The position numbers and the translations under genes were made by a program. A DNA stretch of 32,000 bases from Acaryochloris marina S15. Lineage in GTDB: Bacteria; Cyanobacteriota; Cyanobacteriia; Thermosynechococcales; Thermosynechococcaceae. Location: contig NZ_CP064923.1 of assembly GCF_018336915.1 (NCBI RefSeq), forward strand, positions 4,890,001 to 4,922,000, given 5' to 3'. Shown here piece after piece: positions 16,124 to 29,627 of this stretch. The number at the start of each line of letters is the position of its first letter. Positions within the stretch are counted from its first letter, which is position 1. The notes under the pieces are model-generated. The model ran no database searches. It was not told the DNA's origin and was given only the letters and a program-made list of their open reading frames with translations.

Positions 16124-17215
16124 GTGGTAGTTATTGAAAAAGTTAAATCTATTTTTTTAGGTAATCCATCGCCATCCACAAAACAAATTCACTCTTTAGA
16201 TGGCATTAGAGGATTTGCAATTTTATTTGTTTTTTTTGATCATGCCAAAGGACAAGGACTAGAGCTATTCCCAGTTCTAAACCCTACTGGCTTTGGTAAG
16301 GCAGGCGTCTATTTATTCTTCGTGTTGAGTAGCTTTTTGTTGGCGGGACAATTCCTGAGGGATGACTGCGAACTGGGGCGTTGGTCCCTTTGGGTAAGTT
16401 ACGCACTCAAGCGAGTCTTACGGATCTATCCGTTGTACATCTTTATTATGTTGCTTTATGGCATCGTACCCAGTTTTAAATACACGGCTACAGATGTCTT
16501 CAGTCATATATTTCTACAGGAAGGAAAAGATCAATTTTGGGCTATTCCTGTTGAATTTAAGTTCTACCTATTTTTACCGATCTTAATGTGGCTGATTGTT
16601 AAAGTTTTGAAGAAGAACCTTGGGCTTTCGACCCTTTTCTTAGGGGCCGTGATGAGTGCCAGTTTCCTGATCACCATTGAACCGGCTGAGGTGGCGCGAG
16701 TCTCCCTCATTAAATATTTACCTATTTTTCTCTTAGGGATATTAGCTGCCTTAATTCATGCCCATTTACAAAATCGTCAAACCCAGTTTCTGGAGTCTGA
16801 CACCTTTGGATATATTGCGGAAGGCGTGGCCCTCCTCAGTTTGATCGCGACGTTTGGCTTAATCACCACGTTGCGGACCAAACCCGATTGGTTTCTCTTA
16901 CAACAGGATTGGTCAGATACCCTAATATTCATCGCCTTTGGAGGGGCATGGTCTTTATTTTTAGTGGCTCAGCTACATGGTCGCGGTCTGATTCGTGGTC
17001 TCTTGAGTCATCCCATTATTCGGTTTGTGGGAACGATCAGTTTTAGTATGTACCTTTGGCATATGGCCCTGATTGGCTATACCAATGCCCATCTCAATAT
17101 GGCTCCACCGATTAAATTCTCGATTATTTTGACGATCACGCTTGGGGTTGCAATCATGAGTTTCTTCGTGATTGAGCGGCCCTTCTTTCGTTTGAAGAAG
17201 TACTTACCTAGATAA
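16124..17215 (+). CDS. Acyltransferase-3 (AT3/OafA-like) integral membrane O-acyltransferase
   Basis: LDGIRGFAILFVFFDH, GVYLFFVLSSFLL, RIYPLY and SFSMYLWH are AT3 family blocks, with about 10 hydrophobic helices. A GTG start is needed to include the first conserved block. Confidence 0.82.
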   Translation: MVVIEKVKSIFLGNPSPSTKQIHSLDGIRGFAILFVFFDHAKGQGLELFPVLNPTGFGKAGVYLFFVLSSFLLAGQFLRDDCELGRWSLWVSYALKRVLRIYPLYIFIMLLYGIVPSFKYTATDVFSHIFLQEGKDQFWAIPVEFKFYLFLPILMWLIVKVLKKNLGLSTLFLGAVMSASFLITIEPAEVARVSLIKYLPIFLLGILAALIHAHLQNRQTQFLESDTFGYIAEGVALLSLIATFGLITTLRTKPDWFLLQQDWSDTLIFIAFGGAWSLFLVAQLHGRGLIRGLLSHPIIRFVGTISFSMYLWHMALIGYTNAHLNMAPPIKFSIILTITLGVAIMSFFVIERPFFRLKKYLPR

Positions 17216-17368
17216 CTGGATACTATCTAGCCAATGGTGAAACAAAACGAGAGGGCGTTTAGGTAGAAGCGGGGGGATGCCGAGTGGAAGATCTCTCATC
17301 CTTAGTTGACAGCCCCGCCAAAAAAGACCTTGATTGTTCCTATAGGACCCTAGAAAAACACAGCGTCT

Positions 17369-18604
17369 ATGAAATCTCTTTTATTGAGTACATCTGACAT
17401 TGAAGGTGGAGCTGCTAGAGCAGCATACCGACTACATCAAGGGCTTTTGGCGATTGGTCATGATTCCCAAATGCTAGTTCGCGCCCGTTTCAGTGGTCAG
17501 AAATCGGTGCTGGCAGAGAAGTCGGCATTAACAAAATTGGGGCCACAGATGAATGGCTGGCCCTTAAAGCTAGGGTCCTATCAAACCAAAACCCTCTTTT
17601 CAAGCCAATGGTTTCCGGATGCGATCGCAAAGAACGTTGCACAGCTCAACCCAGATATCGTCAATATGCATTGGGTTTGTAATGGCTTCCTCAAGGTAGA
17701 AACCTTGCCCAAGCTCAACAAGCCCTTGGTATGGACCCTTCAGGACATGTGGCCGTTTACGGGGGGATGTCACTATGCAGAAACCTGCGATGGCTACCAA
17801 AAAGCCTGTGGCCAATGCCCTCAACTAAATAGCCAAAAAGAATCTGACTTGTCTCGCAAAATTTGGCAACGCAAGCAAAAAGCCTGGCAGGACATTAACC
17901 TCACCATTGTTACTCCCAGTCAATGGATGGCGGATTGTGTCCGGGAGAGTTCGTTATTTGGCCATCGACGGGTTGAGGTGATTCCGTTTTGTCTAGATGT
18001 CCAGAAATATCGACCTGCGAATAAAGGCTTTAGCCGTGATTTATTGGGGCTGCCTTCAGACAAGCTGATCATTCTATTTGGAGCCTTATCGGCGACCGCT
18101 GACTTAAGAAAAGGGTTTCATCTACTACAGCCCGCCCTGAAAAAACTGAGTCAAGCGGGCTGGGCCGACCGGATTGAGGTAGCAATTTTTGGGGCAGATG
18201 CCCCCGCAGAACCGGCCGATCTAGGATTTAAGGCCCATTACTTGGGGAGCTTTGCCGACGATTTAAGTTTATCTATTGCCTATTCAGCCGCTGATGTCAT
18301 GATTGTGCCCTCTCTCTATGAATCCTTTGGCCAAACGGCATCGGAAGGATTGGCCTGTGGCACGCCTGTGGTTGCATTTAATGCCGCTGGGCAGAAAGAT
18401 ATTGTTAGCCATCAACAGAATGGTTACCTGGTGAAGCCCTACGAAGTGGATGATTTAGCCCACGGCATGGCTTGGGTCTTGGAAGATACTGATCGCCATC
18501 GCAAGTTATGTGAGCAGGCTCGCCAAGCCGCAGTCGATCAGTTCTCCCTGGAGATCCAAGCTCGACAGTATCGCACACTCTTCGAAGAGTTATTGGCTGC
18601 ATAA
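17369..18604 (+). CDS. GT4-family (GT-B) glycosyltransferase
   Basis: GGAARAAYRLHQGL at the N-terminus and the EX7E-type block PSLYESFGQTASEGLACGTPVVAF are present. Confidence 0.85.
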   Translation: MKSLLLSTSDIEGGAARAAYRLHQGLLAIGHDSQMLVRARFSGQKSVLAEKSALTKLGPQMNGWPLKLGSYQTKTLFSSQWFPDAIAKNVAQLNPDIVNMHWVCNGFLKVETLPKLNKPLVWTLQDMWPFTGGCHYAETCDGYQKACGQCPQLNSQKESDLSRKIWQRKQKAWQDINLTIVTPSQWMADCVRESSLFGHRRVEVIPFCLDVQKYRPANKGFSRDLLGLPSDKLIILFGALSATADLRKGFHLLQPALKKLSQAGWADRIEVAIFGADAPAEPADLGFKAHYLGSFADDLSLSIAYSAADVMIVPSLYESFGQTASEGLACGTPVVAFNAAGQKDIVSHQQNGYLVKPYEVDDLAHGMAWVLEDTDRHRKLCEQARQAAVDQFSLEIQARQYRTLFEELLAA

Positions 18605-18674
18605 GCGGCTATTGGATACCCCGTCTTAGACGGCTGATTTGATTGAACTAATCGCAAGCTCTTCTTTAACTAGC

Positions 18675-19838
18675 ATGACAGAACAACTGAGTGAACCAGC
18701 AGCAGCAAGTCAGAAATTTTCGCTCCAGCATCTATTCTTTGGTGCGCGGGCGTCTAAGAGTTGGATGGCGTCTTTAGATGGGTTACGAGGGATTGCTGTT
18801 TTACTAGTGGTCATGACCCATAGCAAACGGCTCTTGGGCTTATCTTGGGATCAGGCAATTGTTGGGCATTATTTTCAAGCCGCCGGCACGATCTATGGCC
18901 GCACTGGAGTCTACTTATTTTTTATCTTGAGTAGTTTCCTGCTCACGGGACAAATGTTGCGGGAAACCATCGATTTAAAGCATATAAAAACATGGATTAA
19001 CTATGGGTTAAAACGAGTCCTCAGAATTTATCCGCTGTATCTCTTTGTTTTAGCCGTTTACACGATTTTCCCAGGCTTCAAGTTTACCTTGGGCAATTTC
19101 ACAGCCCATGTCATTCTGCAAGAAGCTTTAAATCATTTTTGGACGATTGTCGTCGAATTCAAATACTACTTATTTTTCCCGTTCGTCATTTTGATCATTG
19201 CTGTTCTCTTAAAGCGAGACTTTAAAGCTTCAGTGCTCTTTTTATTGACTGCCATTATTGCGACGGAGGGGGCCAATAATGTCGTGGACTTTACCTCAAG
19301 ATTATCGATTCTCCCTCATATCCCTATTTTCCTTCTGGGATCTCTAGCCGCGGTGGTGAATACCAAACTGACAGCGGTCTTAGATCCGGCCAACCCCAAA
19401 CAGCAAAGATGGATGTCCATCCTGGCCAACTCCTCTTTAGTGTTGATTGTGTTCAATTTTCCGACTCTACTGAGCCGTCCGCTGTGGGATACGGTATTCC
19501 AAGCGAATTATGTTCGACTTTCAGCCAACCACGGGTTTTATACCTACCAAGCCATCTTGCTATGTATCTTGCTAGTGTCCCATTTACATACAGATGGGTG
19601 GATCAAAAAGGTTCTAGAAAATGTGGCCCTGCGATTTGTCGGGGTCGTCAGTTTCGGAGTCTATCTTTGGCATATTGCGGTTCTTGGATATGTTGAAGCC
19701 TATCTAAAAGCCCCCGGTTTTATCCAGTATGTTGCTGTTTTTGGGGCGACTATCTTATTGTCTTCTGTGACTTATCTCCTGTTTGAAAAGCCTTTTATGA
19801 AAATCAAACTCCGTCCTCAGACCCTTAAGATCCAGTAG
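18675..19838 (+). CDS. Acyltransferase-3 (AT3) membrane O-acyltransferase, paralogue of 16124-17215
   Basis: It has the same blocks as the first AT3: LDGLRGIAVLLVVMTH, GVYLFFILSSFLL, LKRVLRIYPLYLF and SFGVYLWH. The start is uncertain, either the TTG at 18639 or the ATG at 18675. Confidence 0.8.
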   Translation: MTEQLSEPAAASQKFSLQHLFFGARASKSWMASLDGLRGIAVLLVVMTHSKRLLGLSWDQAIVGHYFQAAGTIYGRTGVYLFFILSSFLLTGQMLRETIDLKHIKTWINYGLKRVLRIYPLYLFVLAVYTIFPGFKFTLGNFTAHVILQEALNHFWTIVVEFKYYLFFPFVILIIAVLLKRDFKASVLFLLTAIIATEGANNVVDFTSRLSILPHIPIFLLGSLAAVVNTKLTAVLDPANPKQQRWMSILANSSLVLIVFNFPTLLSRPLWDTVFQANYVRLSANHGFYTYQAILLCILLVSHLHTDGWIKKVLENVALRFVGVVSFGVYLWHIAVLGYVEAYLKAPGFIQYVAVFGATILLSSVTYLLFEKPFMKIKLRPQTLKIQ

Positions 19839-19843
19839 CGTCT

Positions 19844-22663
19844 TTATGGGTAGGGGCTAGTCTCAGCAGATGAGTTGGCCTGCCAGAGCACACGAAATTG
19901 CTCAAAGGACACCGCCTTCGACCAGTGCCATAGCAACCTGTAGGTCGCTTGAACCTGAGAGAGGTGAGGGGACTGGGTATAGACCCATTGGACAACGGAT
20001 ATTGCTTTCACCAGGGTTGGGGGGATACTGTCCTCTTCAGAGGTGATCACCTGTTGGAGATGCAGACCCATCTGTTTGAGATGGGTTTTGCGATGGGTCG
20101 TGGGGAGCAGTTCCAACAATATATCGATGGCTCCCTTGTGGTTGGGTTGCAGGCGTCCCAAACGGCCTGCATAGCGAATGCGAGTCTCAATATCTCGGCT
20201 GTTTTGGAGTTTTTGCTCCAAAACAGGAATAAGCTGCTCCGGGTTCAGGGGGGTTTTGCGAGACCGACGCCGAGAGGACTCTACCGGCAATGCAGAATGC
20301 TGGGGAGCCAATTGTTGCAAAGATTGCAGCGTTTGACGACGGAGACAGGGATCATCCGTTGTTTGCAGGATATGTTCTAGGATTTGGAGCACCATCGGTT
20401 GATCCGGCGCAATAGTGCCGAGCCGATGGGCAGCCTTGCGACGAAGCGTCAGAGAATCATGAGACTGAATAATATCTTGTAAGGTTTGGATGGCTTGGGG
20501 ATGACCTGGCTGAATATCCCCTAGGCTTTTGGCCATCTCAATACGCAGATCCTCATTGGGCGCTTGGGAGAGGAGTTGTTCTAGGGTTGCGATCGCAACT
20601 CCATTCCCCGGATCGTAACTCTTACCCAAACTATGGGCCGCTAACCACTGTTCAAAAGGGTTGGAGGCCTGGGCCACAAACTGTTCAATCGCTGTGGTTA
20701 CGAGGGTGCGATCGCAGTGGGACAACGCTTCCGCTGCAGGTTCGATCCAAACAGTGGGTTTACCTGTCTGCTGCTGAAATCGCCAATGGACCACCTCAGT
20801 CACTAACGCTTCTGCCCCAGCAAATTGGGGATATTCCGCTAAGCCTTTGGTCGCGAGTAACTTCGCTTGAGTGTCATAAAACCCACCACAGCCATCGGCA
20901 AAGTTCACCAAGGCTTGCAGAAAATCTGCCTTATCCACATCAGCAATGTCACTTCGCCCGAGCCATAGCAAAATCACTTCCTGCCATTGCGACCTAAAGA
21001 TGGGATGGAAGGTGGTTTTCGCATTCTGATATTCGATCAACTGATGCCAATCTGCAATCCCTTGGGCCGCAAAATATTCCTGGAACGTAGCGTGATAGAA
21101 GGCATAGACTTTGCCCCCGGTCGTAGGAGACCAACCTGCGGGCTGTAGCCACCCTAATTGCAAGGCGAGCGTGAGTTGGTCTGGGTCTAACTGCTGACTG
21201 ACAAAGATCTCAGGCAAGCGAAACAGCGGCGACGGTTGCGCCATGGCCTGCAAAGCCAGGTGAGCTAAGGCTTGGTTAAGCTGCTGCCGTTGACCCAAGC
21301 TGGTAGGGTGATGATCCTGCTTCCAGTCGTAGAGGGCCTCAACAAACTGCCGATAGAGCATGGCCTTGGTTTCTGGCAGTTGTCCTTGAGTAAGCTGCCA
21401 GGTTCGACAGAGTAGGGCTAAGTGTAAAGGATTCTGGATCAGGGCTTTGAGCCGCCGCATCTCCGGGCGATTAATTTGGTGATACAGCGTATCGCCTTGC
21501 TGGTTATGGAACCAGTTTTGGATCACTGTCTGGACTTGATTACCGCCGTGGCGATAGCTGAAGCTGAGGCTGCGATAGGGGGTGAAGGCTTCCAGAGCAT
21601 TGTGGCCTGTGTCCCAGAGTTGCGATCGCGAAGTCAGTATCACATGGGCTGCTCCCAGCCAGCCCTTCAGCTGCTTAGCCACAAAAGCCAACGCTTGGCT
21701 AGGCACCATCCCCATTTCATCCACCGCATCCAGCAAAAGCCAAACCTTACCTGTGGCAAACTGCTGGGCAAAGGCTTGCTGCTGACTCAACGGAACGGTA
21801 AATACCTTCAGGGTTTGTTTTAGCCAAGTTTCTAGCAGATACGTCTCTAGGGATTGTCCCTCTAGATCGGCTAGGGAGATCCAAATAGGCAGAACCTGTT
21901 CTTGGGCCAACAATTTGAGGGCTAAGGTTTGCAGCAGCGTCGTTTTGCCTGCTCCTGGTGGACCGACAATGGCAACCCGCTGGATCTCTGGTTGAGCCAG
22001 TAAAACGTCTAAAAACTGATCCGGTTGATAAACGATTGATTCTAGGTCAGATTCGGCTGCTGAATCCCCCGTTTGTTTAGCAGCATCGGTCTGGTAAGCC
22101 ACCAACCCCACTGGACAGTAGACATCCTTAAGGTCAAAGGCCAAGCCCGTATGGGCCGTCAGGGGATTAGACGTTAACCGAGTATCCAAAGCTGCCTGAC
22201 AACAGGCTCGCCAAGGGCTGGTAGTCTCTGTTGTTGATAGCTGAGACACCCCTCGATCTGGGCGATGCTGATTCCAAACTTGGTCAAAGGTCTGCTGATT
22301 GGTTTCCTCTTCCCAGCGGTTCTGCCACAAAGTCAGGGTGAAATGCCACTGATCCGACCCTCGCTGACTTGTGCGGTGATCCTCCAGAATGCCCATAAAG
22401 GTTTGGAGATGCTTTAGCCCTGCTTTCACCTGAGCCAGGGTGAGGGGTGTTTCTAAATATTGGGTCAGGGCCACCAAATGCCGAGCCGTGGTCTGTACCA
22501 CCAACCGCTGGTCCGTTTGCCAATGGGTTTTGATATTGCTCCGTAGTCCTGCCAGGATTTTCTCGTCTTCTAGGGCTAAGGAATCATTGGCGAACTGTAC
22601 CAGGCCCATCAGGAGGGTTTGGGTTCTGTGTTGGGTAATGGGACCAAAACTTTGCTTGGGCAT
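19844..22663 (-). CDS. NACHT-domain STAND NTPase with C-terminal PBS-lyase/HEAT-like repeats and an uncharacterised ~215-aa N-terminal region
   Basis: Walker A is VAIVGPPGAGKTTLLQTL and Walker B is VWLLLDAVDEMG. The pre-NACHT segment NPLTAHTGLAFDLKDVYCPVGLV is typical of cyanobacterial NACHT proteins. C-terminal repeats of the type LRIEMAKSLGDIQPGHPQAIQTL / LRRKAAHRLGTIAPDQPMVLQIL are HEAT-like. Confidence 0.85.
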   Translation of the reverse strand: MPKQSFGPITQHRTQTLLMGLVQFANDSLALEDEKILAGLRSNIKTHWQTDQRLVVQTTARHLVALTQYLETPLTLAQVKAGLKHLQTFMGILEDHRTSQRGSDQWHFTLTLWQNRWEEETNQQTFDQVWNQHRPDRGVSQLSTTETTSPWRACCQAALDTRLTSNPLTAHTGLAFDLKDVYCPVGLVAYQTDAAKQTGDSAAESDLESIVYQPDQFLDVLLAQPEIQRVAIVGPPGAGKTTLLQTLALKLLAQEQVLPIWISLADLEGQSLETYLLETWLKQTLKVFTVPLSQQQAFAQQFATGKVWLLLDAVDEMGMVPSQALAFVAKQLKGWLGAAHVILTSRSQLWDTGHNALEAFTPYRSLSFSYRHGGNQVQTVIQNWFHNQQGDTLYHQINRPEMRRLKALIQNPLHLALLCRTWQLTQGQLPETKAMLYRQFVEALYDWKQDHHPTSLGQRQQLNQALAHLALQAMAQPSPLFRLPEIFVSQQLDPDQLTLALQLGWLQPAGWSPTTGGKVYAFYHATFQEYFAAQGIADWHQLIEYQNAKTTFHPIFRSQWQEVILLWLGRSDIADVDKADFLQALVNFADGCGGFYDTQAKLLATKGLAEYPQFAGAEALVTEVVHWRFQQQTGKPTVWIEPAAEALSHCDRTLVTTAIEQFVAQASNPFEQWLAAHSLGKSYDPGNGVAIATLEQLLSQAPNEDLRIEMAKSLGDIQPGHPQAIQTLQDIIQSHDSLTLRRKAAHRLGTIAPDQPMVLQILEHILQTTDDPCLRRQTLQSLQQLAPQHSALPVESSRRRSRKTPLNPEQLIPVLEQKLQNSRDIETRIRYAGRLGRLQPNHKGAIDILLELLPTTHRKTHLKQMGLHLQQVITSEEDSIPPTLVKAISVVQWVYTQSPHLSQVQATYRLLWHWSKAVSFEQFRVLWQANSSAETSPYP

Positions 22664-22682
22664 AGAGAAATTTCACGACAAA

Positions 22683-22702
22683 GTTAGGGGATTCCCCTTA
22701 AC
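22683..22702. promoter_or_regulatory. Imperfect palindrome GTTAGGGGATTCCCCTTAAC in the leader/promoter region of the NACHT gene
   Basis: Seen directly, 20-40 nt upstream of the NACHT ATG (22663). It forms GTTA-GGGG/CCCC-TAAC arms with one extra T. Its function as an operator or 5'-UTR hairpin is speculative. Confidence 0.2.
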
Positions 22703-22837
22703 TTAGATATCTCCCCTCATTCTAGAACCCTCACGCTATCGGCATTTGACTCAAAAACAACTGGAGTGGAATAGGGGGAGAGACGGCCAGTAGATTGGGT
22801 TCAACGATCAGAAACGAGGTTACTTCACTTCAAACAC

Positions 22838-22966
22838 GGACGGTTAGTTTAACGGTAGAACTCCTGTTATATGAATCTCCTTATTCACAACTTTATCCGC
22901 AAGGGTCGAAGAATTAGGGTTATCGCTAAGGAACAGGGGGTAGAGGTTCGAATCCTCTACTGTCCA
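22838..22966 (+). ncRNA. tRNA-like RNA unit 1 (candidate Y-RNA/YrlA-like partner of Rsr), 129 nt
   Basis: Acceptor GGACGGT/ACTGTCC (7 bp, one G-U), D arm GTTT-AACGGTA-GAAC, T arm AGAGG-TTCGAAT-CCTCT, discriminator A. In place of the anticodon stem-loop there is a CCTGTT/AACAGG helix closing a 63-nt extension (22869-22931). Confidence 0.7.
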
Positions 22967-22987
22967 AACCAAAACACCAATATCCAT

Positions 22988-23109
22988 GGGCGGATAGTTC
23001 AAAGGTAGAACATCTTAACCCCCTTGTTCATCACTTATCCGCAAGGGTCGAAGAATTAGGGTTATCGCCTACCACGCGGAAGATAGGGGTTCGACTCCCC
23101 TTCCGTCCA
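22988..23109 (+). ncRNA. tRNA-like RNA unit 2 (candidate Y-RNA-like), 122 nt
   Basis: Acceptor GGGCGGA/TCCGTCC, D arm GTTC-AAAGGTA-GAAC, T arm AGGGG-TTCGACT-CCCCT, discriminator A. It shares an identical 34-nt core (23035-23068) with unit 1 (22893-22926) inside its extension arm. Confidence 0.7.
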
Positions 23110-23115
23110 TCCCTG

Positions 23116-23239
23116 GAGTGGGTCGCTCAAACGGTAGAGCACCATTTTTTGCCCATTAGGGCCGCAGGAAATAAGGTTATCGCTTTTAACGACTTGTCCT
23201 TTATCCATCGGGATGCGGGTTCGACTCCCGCTCCACTCC
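23116..23239 (+). ncRNA. tRNA-like RNA unit 3 (divergent internal arm), 124 nt
   Basis: Acceptor GAGTGGG/TCCACTC (plus a possible extra G23115:C23239 pair), D arm GCTC-AAACGGTA-GAGC, T arm GCGGG-TTCGACT-CCCGC. The internal ~74 nt include the hairpin ATTTTTT-GCCC-ATTA-GGGC-(CGC)-AGGAAAT (23144-23172). Confidence 0.62.
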
Positions 23240-23294
23240 CTTTCCCCATATGGGGTTTCAAGTTTTTATTTGCCCAGTCGGGCCGGAGATGATG

Positions 23295-24893
23295 ATGACT
23301 TATAAATTTTTGACCAACACTGCCCGTACACCTCAGACCCAGCCCATTCCTGGCCGTGACGCTGAAATGGTCCAAGGTCGGTCTGGAGGCTATATGTTTG
23401 ACCTAGGCATTTGGGGTATGCTGCGCCGATGCCTACTGATCGGTACAGCCCAAAGCACCTACTATGCCGATAAGCATGAGCTAACCGATGACTTTATTCA
23501 TGTGATTCAGCAGTGTGTCCATGAGAATCCCCAGCGCACCGCTGAAGAGATCCTCTATGCCAGCGATGGCCGCTCCATCAACAACAGTGCCCCTATCTTG
23601 GCTTTAGTACTCTTATCCATGGGTGAAACCCAGACGGCCAAGCAGGCCTTTGTAGAGCTGTTCCCCCAAGTGGTACGAACCGGAAGCCATTTCTACGAGT
23701 GGTTGAACTACACCAAGTCCTTACGAGGCTTTGGTAAAATCATTCGCCAGTGCGGAACGGCATGGCTCTCTAACCCCGATGCCAAGGCCCTGGCCTATCA
23801 GTTGCTGAAGTACCAGCAGCGTCATGGCTTTACCCACCGGGATGCCTTGCGGCTGTTCCACGTCAAGCCCATCAGTGAAGACCACCAAGCCCTTTATCAC
23901 TGGGTCACCCAGGGTTGGGAGACTTTACCTGAAACTGCTCCTGACGCCTTAAGACAAATTTGGTGGTACGAGCGGGTTAAGCGTCAGCCAGAGGCTACCT
24001 ATGAGGCGATTACCCAAGGTCGCTTAACCCACGAGATGATCGCCCCCATTGGTCAGATGGATCAGCGGGCTTGGCAGCTCCTCTTAGAGGGAATGCCTAT
24101 GGGAGCCCTACTGCGAAATCTGGGGTCTTTGACGGCACTAGGGGTTCTCGCAGCTCATAAGAGCAAGAACCTGAAGCGAGTGGCTGCGATGTTAACCAAC
24201 AAGCAGCGGTTGCGTAAGGCTCGGATTCATCCAATTGATGTACTCAAAGCTTTGAAAACCTATGCATCTGGTGGTCAGGTGGGGCGGAGTCGCAAGACTT
24301 GGACCCCTATCGCCCGAGTCACCGATATGCTCGAAACGGCTCTTGAGCTGTCCTTCGAGACGGTTGCTCCGACGGGCAAAGTGTTTATGCATGCCATCGA
24401 TGTATCAGGATCGATGTCCTACTATACCGTCGGTTCGGTAGGCCTCAGCTGTTGCGAGATTGCCACGGCAATGGCCCTAGCAACGGCCAAAGCTGAGCAG
24501 AATTACGCGATTCGCGGGTTCTCAACCCAGTTCCGTGACTTGGGTATCACAGCCCGAGATAGCTTCCGCGATGCGCTCAAGAAGGCAACGGATAATAATT
24601 TCGGAGGCACTAATGCAGCGGTGGCCTACGAGTGGGCGATTCAGCATCGCTTTTATGCCGATGTCTTCTGCTTCTGGACGGATTCCGAGTCCTACGCGGG
24701 ACGACAGCATCCGAGTCAGGCTCTAGCGGAGTATCGGCGTCTGGTCAATCCAAAGGCTAAGGCAGTCTACGTGACCCTTGCGCCTTGCCAACTCTCCTTA
24801 GTAGATCCTTCGGATCTACTATCTTGGGACTTCGGTGGTTTCGACCCCGCAGCTCCACGAGCGATTCAAATGATTGCTCAAGGAGAGATCTAA
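23295..24893 (+). CDS. rsr: Ro 60-kDa autoantigen orthologue Rsr (TROVE domain + vWA domain with MIDAS motif)
   Basis: The N-terminus TPQTQPIPGRDAEMVQGRSGGYMF and RRCLLIGTAQSTYYA are Ro60/TROVE-typical. The C-terminal vWA domain has the MIDAS motif HAIDVSGSM. Three consecutive ATGs lie at 23289-23297 and GGAG at 23285-23288 favours 23295. The ORF-track start at 23250 begins only 10 nt after tRNA-like unit 3. Confidence 0.9.
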   Translation: MTYKFLTNTARTPQTQPIPGRDAEMVQGRSGGYMFDLGIWGMLRRCLLIGTAQSTYYADKHELTDDFIHVIQQCVHENPQRTAEEILYASDGRSINNSAPILALVLLSMGETQTAKQAFVELFPQVVRTGSHFYEWLNYTKSLRGFGKIIRQCGTAWLSNPDAKALAYQLLKYQQRHGFTHRDALRLFHVKPISEDHQALYHWVTQGWETLPETAPDALRQIWWYERVKRQPEATYEAITQGRLTHEMIAPIGQMDQRAWQLLLEGMPMGALLRNLGSLTALGVLAAHKSKNLKRVAAMLTNKQRLRKARIHPIDVLKALKTYASGGQVGRSRKTWTPIARVTDMLETALELSFETVAPTGKVFMHAIDVSGSMSYYTVGSVGLSCCEIATAMALATAKAEQNYAIRGFSTQFRDLGITARDSFRDALKKATDNNFGGTNAAVAYEWAIQHRFYADVFCFWTDSESYAGRQHPSQALAEYRRLVNPKAKAVYVTLAPCQLSLVDPSDLLSWDFGGFDPAAPRAIQMIAQGEI

Positions 24894-24898
24894 CAAAT

Positions 24899-24950
24899 AG
24901 AGGTTACTAATCACCTTGTTATCAAGGCTTAGTAACCTCTTTCTTTTCTT
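24899..24950 (+). terminator. Rho-independent terminator of the tRNA-like/rsr unit (possibly bidirectional)
   Basis: There is a perfect 12-bp outer stem AGAGGTTACTAA/TTAGTAACCTCT and a 5-bp inner stem CCTTG-TTAT-CAAGG, followed by TTCTTTTCTT. It begins 6 nt after the rsr stop. Confidence 0.8.
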
Positions 24951-24999
24951 AAATATTTATATTCAAATGCACCCATCAAGTGAGTAAAAAACTTAGTAT

Positions 25000-25461
25000 C
25001 TAAACAGCTTCAAATACTCGGATATCTTCAAAAATACCCTTTAGAACAGAAGTATAGTTATCTAGTGAGATGCCGAACATCAGCAGATTGAATGGCAAGA
25101 GAGAGCTTCGCGGATCAGTTTCAAAATCTCGAAATATGATATTGCGATCCCAACTTTGCACTACATTACAGCTAATACAACTGCATCCATATGTTCCGCA
25201 AGGACATACAGCAATCACGCGTTTTTCTGGGTAACCATTGTCCAGTCGAGAAAGTGGCCGCAAAGCGACGCCAGTCTTAAAAAGCCAATAGGGAACGGCT
25301 GTATCTGAAGTACCTGCTATTTCCCCAATAGTTTTTCTATCTACCATCAGTTCGAAGGAAAGACCATTACTTTCTAAACTCTGATAACTTAGAACATTCA
25401 GATCAGCAAGAGAATTATTACGAGTCATATAAGTCATGTTGCTGCTTGCTTCTAAGCACAT
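25000..25461 (-). CDS. Hypothetical protein with a Cys cluster (CPCGTYGCSCISC), no recognisable family
   Basis: It is the only long ORF in a visibly AT-rich stretch. The start is ambiguous (Met at 25461, 25437 or 25428). I recognise no motifs beyond the Cys cluster. Confidence 0.45.
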   Translation of the reverse strand: MCLEASSNMTYMTRNNSLADLNVLSYQSLESNGLSFELMVDRKTIGEIAGTSDTAVPYWLFKTGVALRPLSRLDNGYPEKRVIAVCPCGTYGCSCISCNVVQSWDRNIIFRDFETDPRSSLLPFNLLMFGISLDNYTSVLKGIFEDIRVFEAV

Positions 25462-25790
25462 GGCTACTAGATTTCATGAGAGTCGCCCATCAATACAAAT
25501 ACTGGGTTATTGAGCGATATTAATAATTTACTTTGTCTTAAAAGAGCTATGCCTATATTAAGAATACCCAGTATGGATACAGCGGTTTTCATATAGATGG
25601 GGGACAGCCACAACTCTTAAAAAGCTTGATCAGTAAATGCTCCAGGATTGAATATGTCCCCTACCAACCTACGATCCGCTGTAACCACCCAAATCACGAC
25701 AAGCGAACAACTTTACCAACACCAAGTGACTCCAAACCTCAAGGATTCATCTAATGATGAATGGTAATCATCAACAGTTGCTCCATCGGC

Positions 25791-26336
25791 TTAAGTTTTT
25801 GTCAGCAGAACCACATCGTTTCCTGAAATGGTCAGAGCTGCCTGCCAATGATGGGCCAACCATTCAAACGTCTCAATCGAAAAGAAACACACATGGGTCA
25901 GATCACGTTTGTAATGCCAGTGAGGAAAAGCCGCCTGATCAATAACTTGCTTGGTCATAATCCCCAATACACCCTTGGGCTTTAGGCAAGACCATAATCG
26001 TTCAAGCTCTCGTCGAGGATGATGGAGATGTTCAACCACCTCAGATGCAGAAATAAAATCGTACTGTCGTTGCAACACCTTAGTATCTGGGGCATAGAAC
26101 AGATCGTAGAGTGCCACAGAATGTCCAGCTTCCTCAAACATGCCCGATAGAGTCGGTCCTGGTCCCGACCCAAAATCGAGTCCACAGCTCTGGGGAAGCA
26201 AACACTGGGACAAGGGCAGAAAAAGCCGATTCAGAAAGCGACGATACCCTGCATCCTCAGCAGAATTTTCGTGAGTATCGTATCTAGACTTTTCATCTTG
26301 TGCTGACAAAAACTGATGGGGGAGCACAAAGACCAA
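25791..26336 (-). CDS. Class I SAM-dependent methyltransferase (core as given by the ORF track; an in-frame N-terminal zinc ribbon extends upstream, see findings)
   Basis: The SAM motif I is GLDFGSGPGPTL, with YDFISASEVVEHL and GVLGIMT following. The upstream in-frame sequence CPLCQSGNASLFHQDDRAYFRCSDC (26342-26416) belongs to the same protein family architecture. Confidence 0.8.
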   Translation of the reverse strand: MVFVLPHQFLSAQDEKSRYDTHENSAEDAGYRRFLNRLFLPLSQCLLPQSCGLDFGSGPGPTLSGMFEEAGHSVALYDLFYAPDTKVLQRQYDFISASEVVEHLHHPRRELERLWSCLKPKGVLGIMTKQVIDQAAFPHWHYKRDLTHVCFFSIETFEWLAHHWQAALTISGNDVVLLTKT

Positions 26337-26610
26337 AAGACAGTCAGAGCAACGAAAATAGGCCCGATCATCTTGGTGAAATAGGCTCGCGTTACCTGAC
26401 TGGCATAACGGACAACACTGATCTAGAAGAGGAACGATATGGGTGGTCTGCGAAAGCTGATGAGTAGAAATGAGCGATTTGCTCCGATGACAGGCACTGA
26501 AGAATCATACTGGGTAGGCACGCCAATCTCACAGCAGGATAGATCAGATCTAAACATTTCATGATGCCCCAATAGTCTGAGGGGCAAGGATTACATGATG
26601 GCCTTGTCTC

Positions 26611-26642
26611 TGTAGTTGGGTTGCGATCGCAACCCAACTACA
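26611..26642. repeat. Perfect 32-nt palindrome centred on a HIP1 site (TGTAGTTGGGTTGCGATCGCAACCCAACTACA)
   Basis: I checked the reverse complement by hand and it is identical. The palindrome lies between two minus-strand methyltransferase genes and can form a hairpin of about 14 bp. Confidence 0.85.
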
Positions 26643-26774
26643 CCCACCCCCCAAAACACCCATCGCGCCAGCGCCATACAGCTCATAGCTTTTCTCCAAC
26701 AGCATGAGTCACCCTAGGTCTTGAAAATTCCACTGGCAACAGCATTCATGATCCATACAAACACTGACAGCCAA

Positions 26775-27500
26775 TTATCTGCCTAAAGTCAGTTTCTGAT
26801 ATCCCATAAGTCTGCGAATCCCCTTAAGCACACCCGAGGGCAGCTTTAGCAAAACATGGTGATGTATGAGCATCAGGCTATCAGGGAGCAATTTCTGCCC
26901 ACGTGTAGACCACCGAGCCAAGGTATCAGTCACTGTCTGGGCAAGCTCTTTGGTGGCATAGGTCGTCGTACCCGTAAACCCAATATTCTTAAATGCCTTG
27001 GATTGAAACAGGTATTTATCCACCACTCGTTTGGGTCCTAAATAGCCCATAAGCTGATTGAACGGGCTACTCGTCGAATCATGAAAGGCAATCGTTCCCC
27101 CTTCTACAACAAAAGGAGACCATAGCAAATAATCCTGCTCCACCATGTCATGTTCATGGTTCCCATCAATAAACAGCAACCCTATCGACTGGGTCCATCC
27201 TTCACAGGCCTCGGCTGATGTTTTAACCATCGGAGTCACTAACTCCCTAACACCAGCACTCGATACATTATGTTCAAACTCTTGATAAGAGTCTTCTTGG
27301 TGGGGGTCAACAGCATAGATAGGAACATTTTCGCCTGCCGCTGAGCCTTGGCTGAGGCAAATCGTTGACTTGCCTTTCCAGGAACCGATTTCTACGATGA
27401 CTGTTTCAGGGGGACAGGCCTTGGCTCTCGTATAAAGGAATTGTGCTTCTGTATCAGTAAGCCATCCCTTCACATAGTTAGGAATGTTGGGAATATTCAT
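26775..27500 (-). CDS. Class I SAM-dependent methyltransferase (Methyltransf_24 / cephalosporin-hydroxylase-like fold)
   Basis: VIVEIGSWKGKST (glycine-rich SAM loop), IYAVDPH, LLFIDGNHEHDMV and GGTIAFHD are typical of this subfamily. Confidence 0.72.
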   Translation of the reverse strand: MNIPNIPNYVKGWLTDTEAQFLYTRAKACPPETVIVEIGSWKGKSTICLSQGSAAGENVPIYAVDPHQEDSYQEFEHNVSSAGVRELVTPMVKTSAEACEGWTQSIGLLFIDGNHEHDMVEQDYLLWSPFVVEGGTIAFHDSTSSPFNQLMGYLGPKRVVDKYLFQSKAFKNIGFTGTTTYATKELAQTVTDTLARWSTRGQKLLPDSLMLIHHHVLLKLPSGVLKGIRRLMGYQKLTLGR

Positions 27501-27985
27501 AAGTCAAAAAGTGTTTGGTGGACAAACAGGCACTAGTATCTTGCTAGCTTCACTTGCTACTCTTTAACTGAAAAATTATGATGTTAGCTAACTAGACTAC
27601 AAAATCATCATAAATACAAGCCACCAAGACCTTGGTAATCTATCGCACATTGTTAATATTTTTAATAACTCAAAAATTATCTATCTCCGATCAAACCCAC
27701 ATACTCTTTTGACTCATAAGTTTGGTATGAAGAGAGAAAAATTCAATCTATAGATTTGTTCCTATAGTCCTTACTGCTTGTCCATTCCAGGTCTAGTCAG
27801 GCTACAACTTTATCCTTAGACAAAACCATATAGATTCCAATAAGATGGAGCTAAAAATCAGATAAAGCTCTTATATATCAATACTTTTGAGCAATAAATA
27901 GCCTTAAGTATAAGGGTATACATACTTGAAAGTATAATCCGTAGCATTCATTCTACAGAAGCATCAAAGCACATAAACATACAGA

Positions 27986-28013
27986 TTGAAGAGAATATTT
28001 CCATTCTCTTCAA
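27986..28013. other. Perfect 11-bp inverted repeat TTGAAGAGAAT-ATTTCC-ATTCTCTTCAA in an ORF-free spacer
   Basis: Read directly from the sequence. There is no flanking U/T tract on either strand. Confidence 0.35.
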
Positions 28014-28095
28014 CTAATAGCTTTCATCTATCTCAAGTCTAATTCAACGAATACAATTATTTTTCCAATCTCAGTGAATTTGCCTAGAACGATCC

Positions 28096-28143
28096 TAGCA
28101 AACTTGCTTGAAGTACCTCATACTTTTTCAGGCAAGTTTGCTA
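28096..28143 (-). terminator. Long stem-loop immediately downstream of the GT39-like gene (candidate terminator or processing site)
   Basis: The perfect 12-bp stem TAGCAAACTTGC/GCAAGTTTGCTA can be extended by T-G, TGAA/TTCA and G-T pairs around a 12-nt loop. It begins 18 nt past the stop at 28161 on the minus strand. There is no clear U-tract. Confidence 0.35.
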
Positions 28144-28160
28144 TCTGGGCTAAATCCCGA

Positions 28161-29627
28161 TCAGTCTGACTTCGGCGTTAGTAAGAACAGATCTACATCT
28201 TCGAACTCTTGCTTCTCTTGGAGTTGGAATTTATCGACGACTGCCTGTCGAAAGCGGTCATGGCCTTCATCCGTGACAAATGCCGTATGTTCATAGGTCA
28301 GCCACAGACGCGATTCAAACGTTGGAATATCTTCTAAGACCTGATCAATCTCTTCGAGTGTTCTATTTTTACTGACAATGTCCATAAATTGGGTGGGAGC
28401 TGAACCCTGGTAATAATACTTGAACACGGTTGGGTTAGCATGAACCGCAATCTGATCACCCGCCTGCACTTGCTGAGAGAGGGTTTGGACAACACCACGC
28501 CAGTCCGATCGATGAGTGTCAGCATAGTAGCGAGACAGCCCGCCACCCACAACAATGGAATAGAGAATGACAATCCCCAGGGCAACAGACCATTTCCACT
28601 TCCAAATTCGGGTAAACCCTGCGGCCAACATCACTAATGCATAGGGAGCGGTAAAGAGTAAATACCGTTCAATCCATAAAGAACTAGTGAGATAGGACGC
28701 TACAAAAACGGCTGACTGAGGAATAAACCACCAGACAATCACCCAACCAATCGATGACTTCCAAGGTTTGGTTGCGATCAGAAAAACAACCACTCCCACT
28801 AACACTAAGGTATAGATATTAATCAGCGGCCCTAACCAAGAGATATCAAAAGGCGGTTTTACCGACCAAATCGTAAACCGGGTTAGCATCCCCGGCAAAC
28901 TCTTCAGACCTGGACGAGGTTGATAAAGGGCCCAAGTTTGCAGAACATCTCCGCTCCCTTTAGCCGTAATTAAAAAAGTGGGTAAACAGGCAGCCCCCAG
29001 AAATAACGCACTGATACCAAACATCATCAGCAGTTTGTGATGTCGCCGAAAATGCCACCCTACCAGCAAAAAATCAGCAAATATCATCGCGATATTTAAG
29101 GGCGCTGTCAAAAACATCAACCACCGCGCAATCGCCCATGCAAAGACAGGGGCAACTTTATGCTCTTGCAAGGCTTGCGTGAGCGCTAATGTCCCGGCTA
29201 AGGCAAGACAAGTTCCCAAGGTATACATGCGGATTTCTTGGGCATGGTTGATAAATAAGGGCGAGAGCGTTAAAAGGAGTGCTGCCGTAACCCCTGTGAC
29301 TTTGCTATCCAGCCGAGTCCCTAATACATAAATTAAGCCAACACTGGCTAATGCAAATAGAACTGATAAACTCCTCATCCAAAACTCATTCGTTCCCAAT
29401 TGCATCCAAACGTGCAATATCAGAAAGTAGAGAGGGCGTGAGATTTTAAATTTAGTTCTAATATTAGTAGCATCTCGAATGCTAAAAGCCTCATCATTCC
29501 AAAGGCTTTCACTATCTAATTGATAGAAAAACAGAAAAATTGCGAGGATAAAAACAATGCCAAACGGCAGGAATTCTCGGATCGATTTATTGCCACTAAA
29601 TCTAGTGTCTAAGGATGATCTTTGCAT
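28161..29627 (-). CDS. GT39/ArnT-like (PMT_2) integral membrane glycosyltransferase with a C-terminal soluble domain
   Basis: The protein has many hydrophobic helices. The first-loop acidic motif ESLWNDEAFSI is typical of GT-C (GT39/GT83) enzymes. About 130 aa at the C-terminus are non-hydrophobic. Confidence 0.72.
   Translation of the reverse strand: MQRSSLDTRFSGNKSIREFLPFGIVFILAIFLFFYQLDSESLWNDEAFSIRDATNIRTKFKISRPLYFLILHVWMQLGTNEFWMRSLSVLFALASVGLIYVLGTRLDSKVTGVTAALLLTLSPLFINHAQEIRMYTLGTCLALAGTLALTQALQEHKVAPVFAWAIARWLMFLTAPLNIAMIFADFLLVGWHFRRHHKLLMMFGISALFLGAACLPTFLITAKGSGDVLQTWALYQPRPGLKSLPGMLTRFTIWSVKPPFDISWLGPLINIYTLVLVGVVVFLIATKPWKSSIGWVIVWWFIPQSAVFVASYLTSSLWIERYLLFTAPYALVMLAAGFTRIWKWKWSVALGIVILYSIVVGGGLSRYYADTHRSDWRGVVQTLSQQVQAGDQIAVHANPTVFKYYYQGSAPTQFMDIVSKNRTLEEIDQVLEDIPTFESRLWLTYEHTAFVTDEGHDRFRQAVVDKFQLQEKQEFEDVDLFLLTPKSD

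Follow-up and report, generated by a model that had tools for sequence, protein, structure and literature searches.

A conserved family of tRNA-like RNAs upstream of rsr in cyanobacteria with a putative Ro60-binding hairpin

Three tRNA-like units upstream of rsr

Most of what is known of bacterial Y RNAs comes from Deinococcus, Salmonella and Mycobacterium, and few YrlA RNAs have been recognised in cyanobacteria (Chen 2014, PMC4201824). We analyzed a 32,000-nucleotide (nt) stretch of Acaryochloris marina S15 (NZ_CP064923.1, positions 4,890,001 to 4,922,000; hereafter the window, in whose numbering positions are given) in which rsr, the gene for a Ro60 orthologue, is directly preceded by three tandem units resembling transfer RNAs (tRNAs). 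The array occupies positions 22838-23239 of the + strand and ends 56 nt before the start of rsr. An original prediction had flagged one arm of the first unit, in which a GCAA-capped hairpin with a bulged C was thought to resemble the Ro-binding helix of Y RNAs, and had proposed either a permuted Y RNA topology or a tRNA scaffold displaying a Ro-binding aptamer. The elements of the first two units and the adjoining gene are as follows (MFE, minimum free energy).

22838-22966, +: unit 1 (type A1), with acceptor stem 22838-22844/22959-22965, D arm 22847-22861, T arm 22942-22958 and discriminator A22966
22863-22937, +: flagged arm of unit 1, with closing stem CCUGUU 22863-22868 / AACAGG 22932-22937
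22879-22886 / 22911-22918, +: helix X of unit 1, CCUUAUUC with GAAUUAGG, from RNAalifold and family pair counts
22891-22911, +: hairpin h of unit 1, CUUUAUCC-GCAA-GGGU(C)GAAG, from the MFE and centroid folds
22905-22911, +: motif GUCGAAG of unit 1
22918-22926, +: GGUUAUCGC of unit 1
22988-23109, +: unit 2 (type A2), with acceptor stem 22988-22994/23102-23108, D arm 22997-23011 and T arm 23085-23101
23020-23029 / 23053-23062, +: helix X of unit 2
23034-23053, +: hairpin h of unit 2, with GCAA loop 23041-23044 and motif GUCGAAG 23047-23053
23065-23079, +: anticodon-like stem-loop H2 of unit 2, with UCGC 23065-23068, loop CUACCAC 23069-23075 and GCGG 23076-23079
23295-24893, +: rsr, Ro60 orthologue, with TROVE (PF05731) and Ro60 vWA (PF25045) domains according to Pfam

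The rsr product is 95-97% identical to Acaryochloris Rsr, and its matches in the Protein Data Bank are Ro60 of X. laevis (1yvp, E 1e-75) and Rsr of D. radiodurans (2nvo, E 2e-74), both over the full length. Unit 1 forms 7 of 7 acceptor pairs within itself and carries the Ro-like module in place of the anticodon loop. The Rfam tRNA model (RF00005, threshold 29) scored it at 48.9 bits with a 64-nt insert in that loop, and scored unit 3 at 35.1 bits. Unit 2 was spotted by eye first and later recovered by a covariance model, R1, which is described below and which gave 118.3 bits for unit 2, 76.8 for unit 1 and 53.6 for unit 3; a true tRNA-Pro in the window scored 44.9. None of the three units was called by ARAGORN, and none of them encodes CCA.

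We compared the flagged arm with the sequence and with its computed folds. The hairpin, CTTTATCC-GCAA-GGGT(C)GAAG in DNA letters, is found at 22891-22911 as predicted, CCTGTT at 22863-22868 can pair with AACAGG at 22932-22937, and a repeat search returned the 34-nt core as an exact repeat at 22893-22926 and 23035-23068. The flagged motif is above chance, since the window holds 2 copies of CGAAG-N5-9-GGTTATC where 0.01 are expected and 3 copies of GGTTATCGC where 0.13 are expected. When unit 1 was folded with RNAfold, both the bulged-C hairpin and the CCUGUU/AACAGG stem appeared in the MFE as well as in the centroid structure. Within Acaryochloris the closing stem shows compensatory changes, reading UCUGUU/AACAGA in one further locus (L001) and CCUGC/GCAGG in another (L002).

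Other parts of the predicted arm had to be revised. The helix CCUUA/UAAGG has both of its strands in the window (CCTTA 22879-22883 and TAAGG 22927-22931) but is not supported beyond this sequence. In the family alignment CCUUAUUC pairs with GAAUUAGG instead, forming helix X. The energies of the two folds, -10.1 kcal/mol with CCUUA/UAAGG and -11.4 kcal/mol with helix X, do not discriminate between them. The A. marina counterpart reads CCUGA, which weakens CCUUA/UAAGG and turns a U.U mismatch of helix X into G.U. Pairing of CCUUA with UAAGG is possible in Acaryochloris, over 5-6 base pairs (bp) in the window, with one mismatch in L001 and as a shifted 4-bp helix in L002. As a conserved helix it was rejected, being missing from units of the same class (e.g. 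L006:1958) and no stabler than helix X. Because helix X joins CCUUAUUC to GAAUUAGG, the tail AAUUAGGGUUAUCGC, which had been read as single-stranded, is paired in unit 1. The single bulged C holds for unit 1, owing to an extra U, whereas most relatives have a C and a G that are both unpaired; an unpaired, near-invariant CG is the family rule. Likewise, the arm extends the anticodon arm in unit 1 but constitutes a fifth arm in unit 2 and most relatives. In type A2 and most relatives the hairpin is inserted at position 26/27, so that it follows the D arm and precedes an intact anticodon-like stem-loop.

Conservation of the units at cyanobacterial rsr loci

An alignment of Rsr homologues was used to retrieve 80 cyanobacterial rsr loci. 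Nearly all of them carry units upstream of rsr and on its strand, visible as 1-7 T-loops 5' of the gene. Each T-loop follows GGTTATC at a distance of about 30 nt, and 10-14 nt 5' of GGTTATC there is often a GNCGAAG-like motif. A script collected 173 distinct units whose arms succeed one another as in an ordinary tRNA; all have a 7-bp acceptor stem and a D stem of 4 bp. The tertiary bases of tRNAs are retained in these units, with U8 in 168, A14 in 170 and the D-loop GG in 169 of them, and the T loop reads GUUCRANNC. R1 was built from 21 units and gave 282 matches in 81 sources, all on the + (rsr) strand. Covariation statistics were calculated for the 141 distinct best R1 matches.

On this alignment, which is fitted to R1 itself, 93.1% of cells were paired compared with 80.6% in shuffles (0 of 500 shuffles reached 93.1%) and 43-54% with slid partners. 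Acceptor stems were 99.2% paired and all 7 of their pairs covary. In the upper stem of the hairpin 95.6% of cells were paired and 4 of 4 pairs covary, with GC in 76 and AU in 40 units at the motif N position and UA in 84 and CG in 45 at the closing pair. Helix X, in which AUCCUUGUUC pairs across the family with GAAU(N)AGGGU directly 3' of the motif, was 89.7% paired with double changes in 6 of 10 pairs, and was also predicted by RNAalifold. RNAalifold run on an independent MAFFT alignment returned the same helices. The hairpin is capped by a GNRA loop in 101 and by UNCG in 6 of the 141 units (107 together). Conservation is highest at the unpaired motif bases C and G and at GGUUA (136-141 of 141), and the conserved 3' strand has the consensus R-G-G-N-C-G-A/C-A/C-G-A-A-(U)-U-K-A-G-G-G-U-U-A. 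Following GGUUA, most units including unit 2 continue with AUCGN-7 nt-N'CGRG, an anticodon-like stem-loop, and then with a variable loop AGGUC and the T arm. This stem has at least 3 of 4 pairs in 123 of the 141 units. A 7-nt loop is present in 98, among which U33 is found in 92, R37 in 91 and the triplet position is occupied by 34 different triplets.

The same hairpin is thus kept upstream of rsr across cyanobacteria, with its stem covarying. We regard it as close to certain that the units represent a conserved structured RNA family tied to rsr.

The distribution of the module does not resemble that of a generic repeat. In the window it is confined to the three units, and the plasmids searched held no copies away from rsr: the only plasmid matches came from four Picosynechococcus plasmids, and all adjoin a TROVE gene. 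No module match was obtained in a phage collection and in viral contigs. An unbiased pattern scan of metagenome contigs yielded 44 loci, of which 29 have rsr adjoining the motif on the same strand. Among the 15 matches lacking rsr, 12 were rejected as chance occurrences in apparent coding DNA, having neither hairpin nor tRNA scaffold. The remaining three (L109, L114 and L117) carry units, and two of these, L109 and L114, lie near a contig end.

The third unit of the window differs from the others in the arrangement of its strands and contains the following elements.

23116-23239, +: unit 3 (type B, strand-swapped), with acceptor stem 23116-23122/23232-23238 and T arm 23215-23231
23151-23162, +: hairpin GCCC-AUUA-GGGC, followed by the motif-like GCCGCAG at 23161-23167
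23167-23176, +: X' strand
23175-23183, +: GGUUAUCGC
23180-23192, +: H2, UCG-CUUUUAA-CGA
23198-23206, +: X strand, CCUUUAUCC

Type B units have a CCUUUGUUC-like strand 3' of the anticodon-like hairpin and not 5' of the motif hairpin. In unit 3 this is the CCUUUAUCC strand, the partner of the motif strand; the motif itself is degenerate. The MFE fold of unit 3 has a z-score of -2.56, and RNAalifold on 26 type B units predicted hairpin h, H2 and the AGG/CCU part of X'/X. The rsr-proximal unit is of type B in several lineages, Acaryochloris among them.

The acceptor stem of unit 2 contains a G3:U70 pair (22990 with 23106), an alanine identity element of tRNAs. As a family-wide alanine identity element it was rejected, as just 12 of the 173 units have it.

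Arm order and comparison with known Y RNAs

We wondered whether the units are read in the order of a tRNA or in the permuted order of YrlA. Single-unit loci, encoded CCA ends and covariation of the acceptor stem within units together argue for the normal tRNA order. In four single-unit loci (L033, L045, L028 and L041) the D arm lies 5' of the T arm and nothing tRNA-like follows downstream, and the same holds for the rsr-adjacent unit of L079. Acceptor strands pair at 6.93 of 7 positions within their own unit, a value biased by the choice of units for acceptor pairing, as against 5.36 with the next unit and 4.87 with random units; the covariation in R1 confirms the within-unit pairing independently. 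Of the 173 units, 38 have CCA directly after the discriminator. Another 28 appear to have an eighth acceptor pair G-1:C73, and most of these end in C|ACCA; overall, roughly one unit in three encodes CCA. The compensatory changes in the closing stem of unit 1 and the almost universal U8, A14 and D-loop GG also favour the tRNA order. At Rfam gathering thresholds, tRNA was called for many units of 20 further loci and YrlA for none. L003, L017, L050 and L056 are among the loci with an encoded CCA at the 3' ends of units, and many Nostocales units show an apparent 8-bp acceptor stem (G-1:C73) followed by ACCA.

From within-unit covariation, single-unit loci, encoded CCA and tetraloop caps, an open acceptor combined with a loop-closed Ro-like helix, as originally predicted, is very likely the topology of these RNAs. 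It is the reverse of that of YrlA and Y RNAs. Motif, topology and conservation are best matched by the second wording of the original prediction, a tRNA scaffold displaying a Ro-binding aptamer.

The motif links the units to Rsr. Chen et al. 2014 (PMC4201824) described a bacterial Y RNA motif, GNCGAAN0-1G, that lies near the 5' end, overlaps sequences of Yrn1 important for Rsr binding and is likely involved in Rsr recognition. GUCGAAG of units 1 and 2 (22905-22911 and 23047-23053) matches this motif exactly, and GCCGCAG of unit 3 has one mismatch. The likeness to YrlA goes further. The units are neighbours of rsr, lying, here and in the 80 loci, within the ~4 kb of the gene expected of YrlA; a G-rich strand and a YUAY element come after the motif strand GNCGAA(N)G (YrlA consensus GGCGAAUGCUUGGGGAACUACGCC, cyanobacterial GCCGAAGAAUGAGGGUUAUCGCC); and D and T arms bear the tRNA tertiary bases in sequences close to the YrlA consensus. 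YrlA itself, however, has been likened to a circularly permuted tRNA in which the acceptor is closed (Wang et al. 2018, structure 6CU1): its T arm precedes its D arm, a loop closes its acceptor and its RNA ends lie in the Ro-binding stem. In the cyanobacterial units, by contrast, the arms are arranged as in a normal tRNA, the acceptor is open and the Ro-like helix is capped by a loop. Most of the units retain an anticodon-like stem-loop, and the units stand in tandem arrays of 1-7. YrlA of Mycobacterium smegmatis, with an acceptor of 7 bp, is a substrate of RNase P and acquires a CCA end (PMC4201824), a precedent for tRNA-like handling of a Y RNA. It is made in the permuted order and cleavage opens its closed acceptor, whereas the cyanobacterial units are encoded with open ends.

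Yrn1 of Deinococcus radiodurans shares with the units the neighbouring rsr, a T arm, the D-then-T order and recognisable strands on both sides of the Ro-binding helix. In Yrn1 that helix is made of the RNA ends and takes the place of the acceptor, while the anticodon position is taken by a stem of 5 bp with a 6-nt loop; the cyanobacterial ends form a true acceptor stem instead, and the Ro-like helix lies inside the RNA as a capped hairpin.

Metazoan Y RNAs are not known to have a tRNA body and are RNA polymerase III transcripts with La-binding tails; their conserved Ro-contact strand reads GGUCCGA... The Ro-binding strand of human Y1 that the original prediction had quoted is real and was verified in papers, as was the hY4 5' end. 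The apparent similarity of the Y1 strand to the core, estimated at about two thirds, amounts to 14 of 22 positions, as does that of hY4. Between hY4 (CGA-UGGUAGU-GGGUUAUC) and the cyanobacterial strand (CGA-AGAAUGA-GGGUUAUC) the CGA and GGGUUAUC blocks as well as their 7-nt spacing are equal. Further likenesses to hY1, hY4 and the complex 1YVP are an unpaired C inside the helix and an orthologous partner protein. The metazoan stem is built from the 5' and 3' ends, whereas the cyanobacterial helix is GCAA-capped and the ends form the acceptor stem.

A predicted group, b7a-tRNA (Burroughs and Aravind 2016), is described by Wang et al. 2018 as close to true tRNAs, linked to RNA-repair genes and occasionally located beside Rsr. 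A GNCGAAG hairpin is not mentioned in that description, which is the basis of our comparison, and no Band-7 or RtcB domain, the gene neighbours expected of b7a-tRNA, was detected among the 8 neighbouring open reading frames (ORFs) of the window that were scanned (16124-29627). Among the papers searched, none tied a Y RNA or Rsr to named cyanobacterial genera. Bacterial Y RNAs that have tRNA-like domains and lie beside rsr are a known kind of element, while the build seen here is unlike YrlA, Yrn1 and metazoan Y RNAs as described.

These comparisons lead us to favour, as fairly likely, a reading of the units as cyanobacterial Y RNAs carried on an ordinary, non-permuted tRNA scaffold, in which the capped hairpin is the module that probably binds Rsr (Ro60). 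Several observations weigh against this. The strict GNCGAAN0-1G motif is present in only 62 of 173 units, the others having GNCGCAG or GNCGACG. The two lower pairs of the hairpin (UU/AA), at only 74% paired, do not covary. The pair counts come from an alignment fitted to the very model they support, a circularity that favours R1, and the own-unit acceptor score carries the bias mentioned above. Single-sequence folding with RNAfold gave weak z-scores (-1.0 to -1.9), and a consensus promoter scan found no promoter. Finally, an Rfam search of 22650-23350 (E <= 10) produced no match to Y_RNA (RF00019) or to any other curated family apart from tRNA, weak YrlA and noise. The YrlA model (RF02553, threshold 69) scored 23.2 bits at 22916-23044 and 20.5 bits at 23078-23143.

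If the favoured reading is true, most rsr-bearing cyanobacteria encode 1-7 Y RNAs of a different build, with normal tRNA order, open and often CCA-encoded ends, an anticodon-like arm that is usually intact and a capped side hairpin bearing the Ro60 site. Conservation of the Ro60-binding strand from cyanobacteria to vertebrates would also be suggested.

The rsr leader and alternative readings of the array

Between unit 3 and rsr we found two further hairpins.

23244-23271, +: small hairpin CCCC-AUAU-GGGG with a U-rich tract, between unit 3 and the rsr leader, read from the sequence
23270-23288, +: rsr leader hairpin UU-GCCC-AGUC-GGGC-CGGAG, with Shine-Dalgarno GGAG at 23285-23288

The mechanically called rsr ORF starts at 23250 (MGFQVF...), and three consecutive ATGs are found at 23289-23297. 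Since homologues begin with MNYKF or MTYKF and in view of the position of GGAG, the third ATG (23295), which gives MTYKF, is likely the true start. The leader hairpin is built like the top of hairpin h, with the Shine-Dalgarno GGAG in place of the units' GAAG. A hairpin of the form UU-GCCC-NNNN-GGGC-[C/U]GG(G)AG just before the rsr start was present in 67 of 80 distinct leaders compared with 6.5% of random segments. Its stem varies (GCCC/GGGC in 35, UCCC/GGGA in 16 and GCCU/AGGC in 9 leaders), and a near-gapless alignment of 34 leaders contained 2 covarying pairs. Several taxa have a true GNCGAAG in the leader, e.g. L022 (GGGACGAAGGAG). This likeness suggests that the leader hairpin is a candidate Rsr-binding mimic for translational feedback.

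On this basis we infer how the array could work. The three units would be transcribed on the rsr strand and most likely excised in the manner of tRNAs, with RNase P cutting at the 5' end and the 3' end being trimmed and given its CCA. The products would be L-shaped RNAs of ~120-130 nt with an open acceptor stem of 7-8 bp and one long side hairpin, capped by a structural tetraloop, whose 3' strand is the conserved element. Rsr would bind the motif strand and the helix as it does the terminal stem of a Y RNA or YrlA, and the tRNA-like body could serve as an effector or tether domain, as proposed for YrlA. The module appears to have been inserted in different ways, replacing the anticodon loop in unit 1, forming a fifth arm in unit 2 and having one strand moved to the 3' side in unit 3. 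Free Rsr might repress its own translation through the look-alike hairpin on the rsr Shine-Dalgarno, with the Y-like RNAs titrating Rsr; if true, the mimic hairpin over the ribosome-binding site predicts a simple feedback loop.

Alternatively, the array might act mainly in cis, as an rsr mRNA leader that binds Rsr or stabilises the message and so controls rsr expression, and not as a source of free small RNAs. Its position immediately 5' of rsr on the same strand and the conserved, module-like hairpin enclosing the Shine-Dalgarno would fit such a role, as would the terminator scan, which called no consensus terminator between array and rsr: its only terminator-like site lies at 22600-22622, upstream of the array, and the CCCC-AUAU-GGGG element at 23244-23271 was not called. 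However, acceptors of 7-8 bp, the tertiary bases of tRNAs and encoded CCA suggest that tRNA-processing enzymes excise the units, as with the 7-bp acceptor of the M. smegmatis YrlA that RNase P cuts (PMC4201824). The number of units also varies from 1 to 7 per locus, some Nostocales units lie 3' of rsr, and a small hairpin with a U-rich tract does follow unit 3. This element could be a weak terminator or a (3'-)processing signal, and CCCC-N4-GGGG elements are likewise found 3' of type B units in L004, L039, L044, L051 and L054. We therefore consider a mainly cis-acting array unlikely; a leader function is compatible with free Y-like RNAs and does not exclude them.

Even less probable, in our view, is the production of permuted YrlA RNAs of the canonical kind. 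Starting midway along one arm, each such RNA would pass through the T arm, a spacer hairpin acting as 'acceptor' and the D arm of the next unit before ending midway along that unit's own arm, with the conserved strands of neighbouring units pairing as an open Ro-binding stem. Both weak YrlA matches sit in exactly this two-unit frame, spanning the T arm of one unit and the D arm of the next, and the identical conserved strands of units 1 and 2 would permit pairing between units. Moreover, a few cyanobacterial YrlA candidates, some with 'much longer acceptor stems', have been published (Chen 2014, PMC4201824; Wang 2018). The two scores are nonetheless far under the threshold, and the YrlA model found no match in 20 further loci. 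Single-unit loci offer no downstream D arm, and pairing of acceptors with the next unit (5.36 of 7) is near random, compared with about 7 of 7 and full covariation within units. The unit-specific closing stem CCUGUU/AACAGG pairs within its unit, CCA is encoded after many units, and three units would give only two RNAs and leave two orphan halves. The published candidates with long acceptors may instead be a permuted reading of such arrays.

Finally, tRNA genes or pseudogenes with an intervening sequence or repeat insertion, next to rsr by accident, are barely credible: Rfam does place units 1 and 3 above its tRNA threshold and a type A2 unit minus its hairpin is a complete cloverleaf with a 7-nt anticodon-like loop, but ARAGORN calls no unit, the inserts measure 50-64 nt, unit 1 has no anticodon loop, the variety of triplets together with a fixed AUCG anticodon-stem strand and recurring acceptor stems speaks against decoding identities, the insert is conserved phylum-wide, always near rsr and on its strand, with none elsewhere in the window, plasmids or phages, and we know of no bacterial splicing system for such inserts.

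Returning to Y RNAs on tRNA scaffolds, a broader reading can be offered tentatively, and we hold it to be rather doubtful as a whole. Cyanobacterial CCA-ended tRNAs with a Ro60-binding hairpin in tandem arrays would be the ancestral bacterial Y RNAs; read-through pairing of neighbouring units would have given rise to the permuted YrlA; the CGA-N7-GGGUUAUC strand would be homologous to the vertebrate Ro-binding strand; and Rsr would autoregulate through the Y-RNA-mimic hairpin over its ribosome-binding site. If this ancestry is true, the arrays are living intermediates for the dimeric-tRNA origin model of YrlA.

Some loci depart from the arrangement seen in the window, where no unit was found 3' of rsr. 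An extra unit of ~108 nt lies just 3' of rsr mostly in Nostocales (L052 4181-4288, L079 4162-4273, L059 4162-4278, L088 14309-14416 and L109 4922-5029). The downstream units of L109 and L088 have the acceptor stem, the Ro-like hairpin and the T arm; that of L109, read in detail, lacks a D arm. The metagenome locus L117 (629-800) has a four-unit array and a leader hairpin with no detectable rsr downstream. The ORF that follows begins with MNYKF, then diverges and gives no tblastn match to Rsr, and may be a degraded or replaced rsr.

The array locus of Picosynechococcus sp. PCC 7002, a cyanobacterial strain in wide use, lies on plasmid pAQ7. In this sequence (L081, NC_010474.1, 3998-6058) three units stand directly 5' of the TROVE gene, and array and gene are flanked by phosphonate and siderophore transport genes. 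Upstream of the array in the window, a divergent gene (19844-22663, - strand) encodes a 939-aa STAND NTPase of EAD4-NACHT-HEAT architecture, a domain set typical of conflict and defence systems. Its linkage to rsr may be incidental because the neighbours of rsr are different in PCC 7002. The surrounding genes are not conserved, and the conserved block runs from the array through the leader to rsr.

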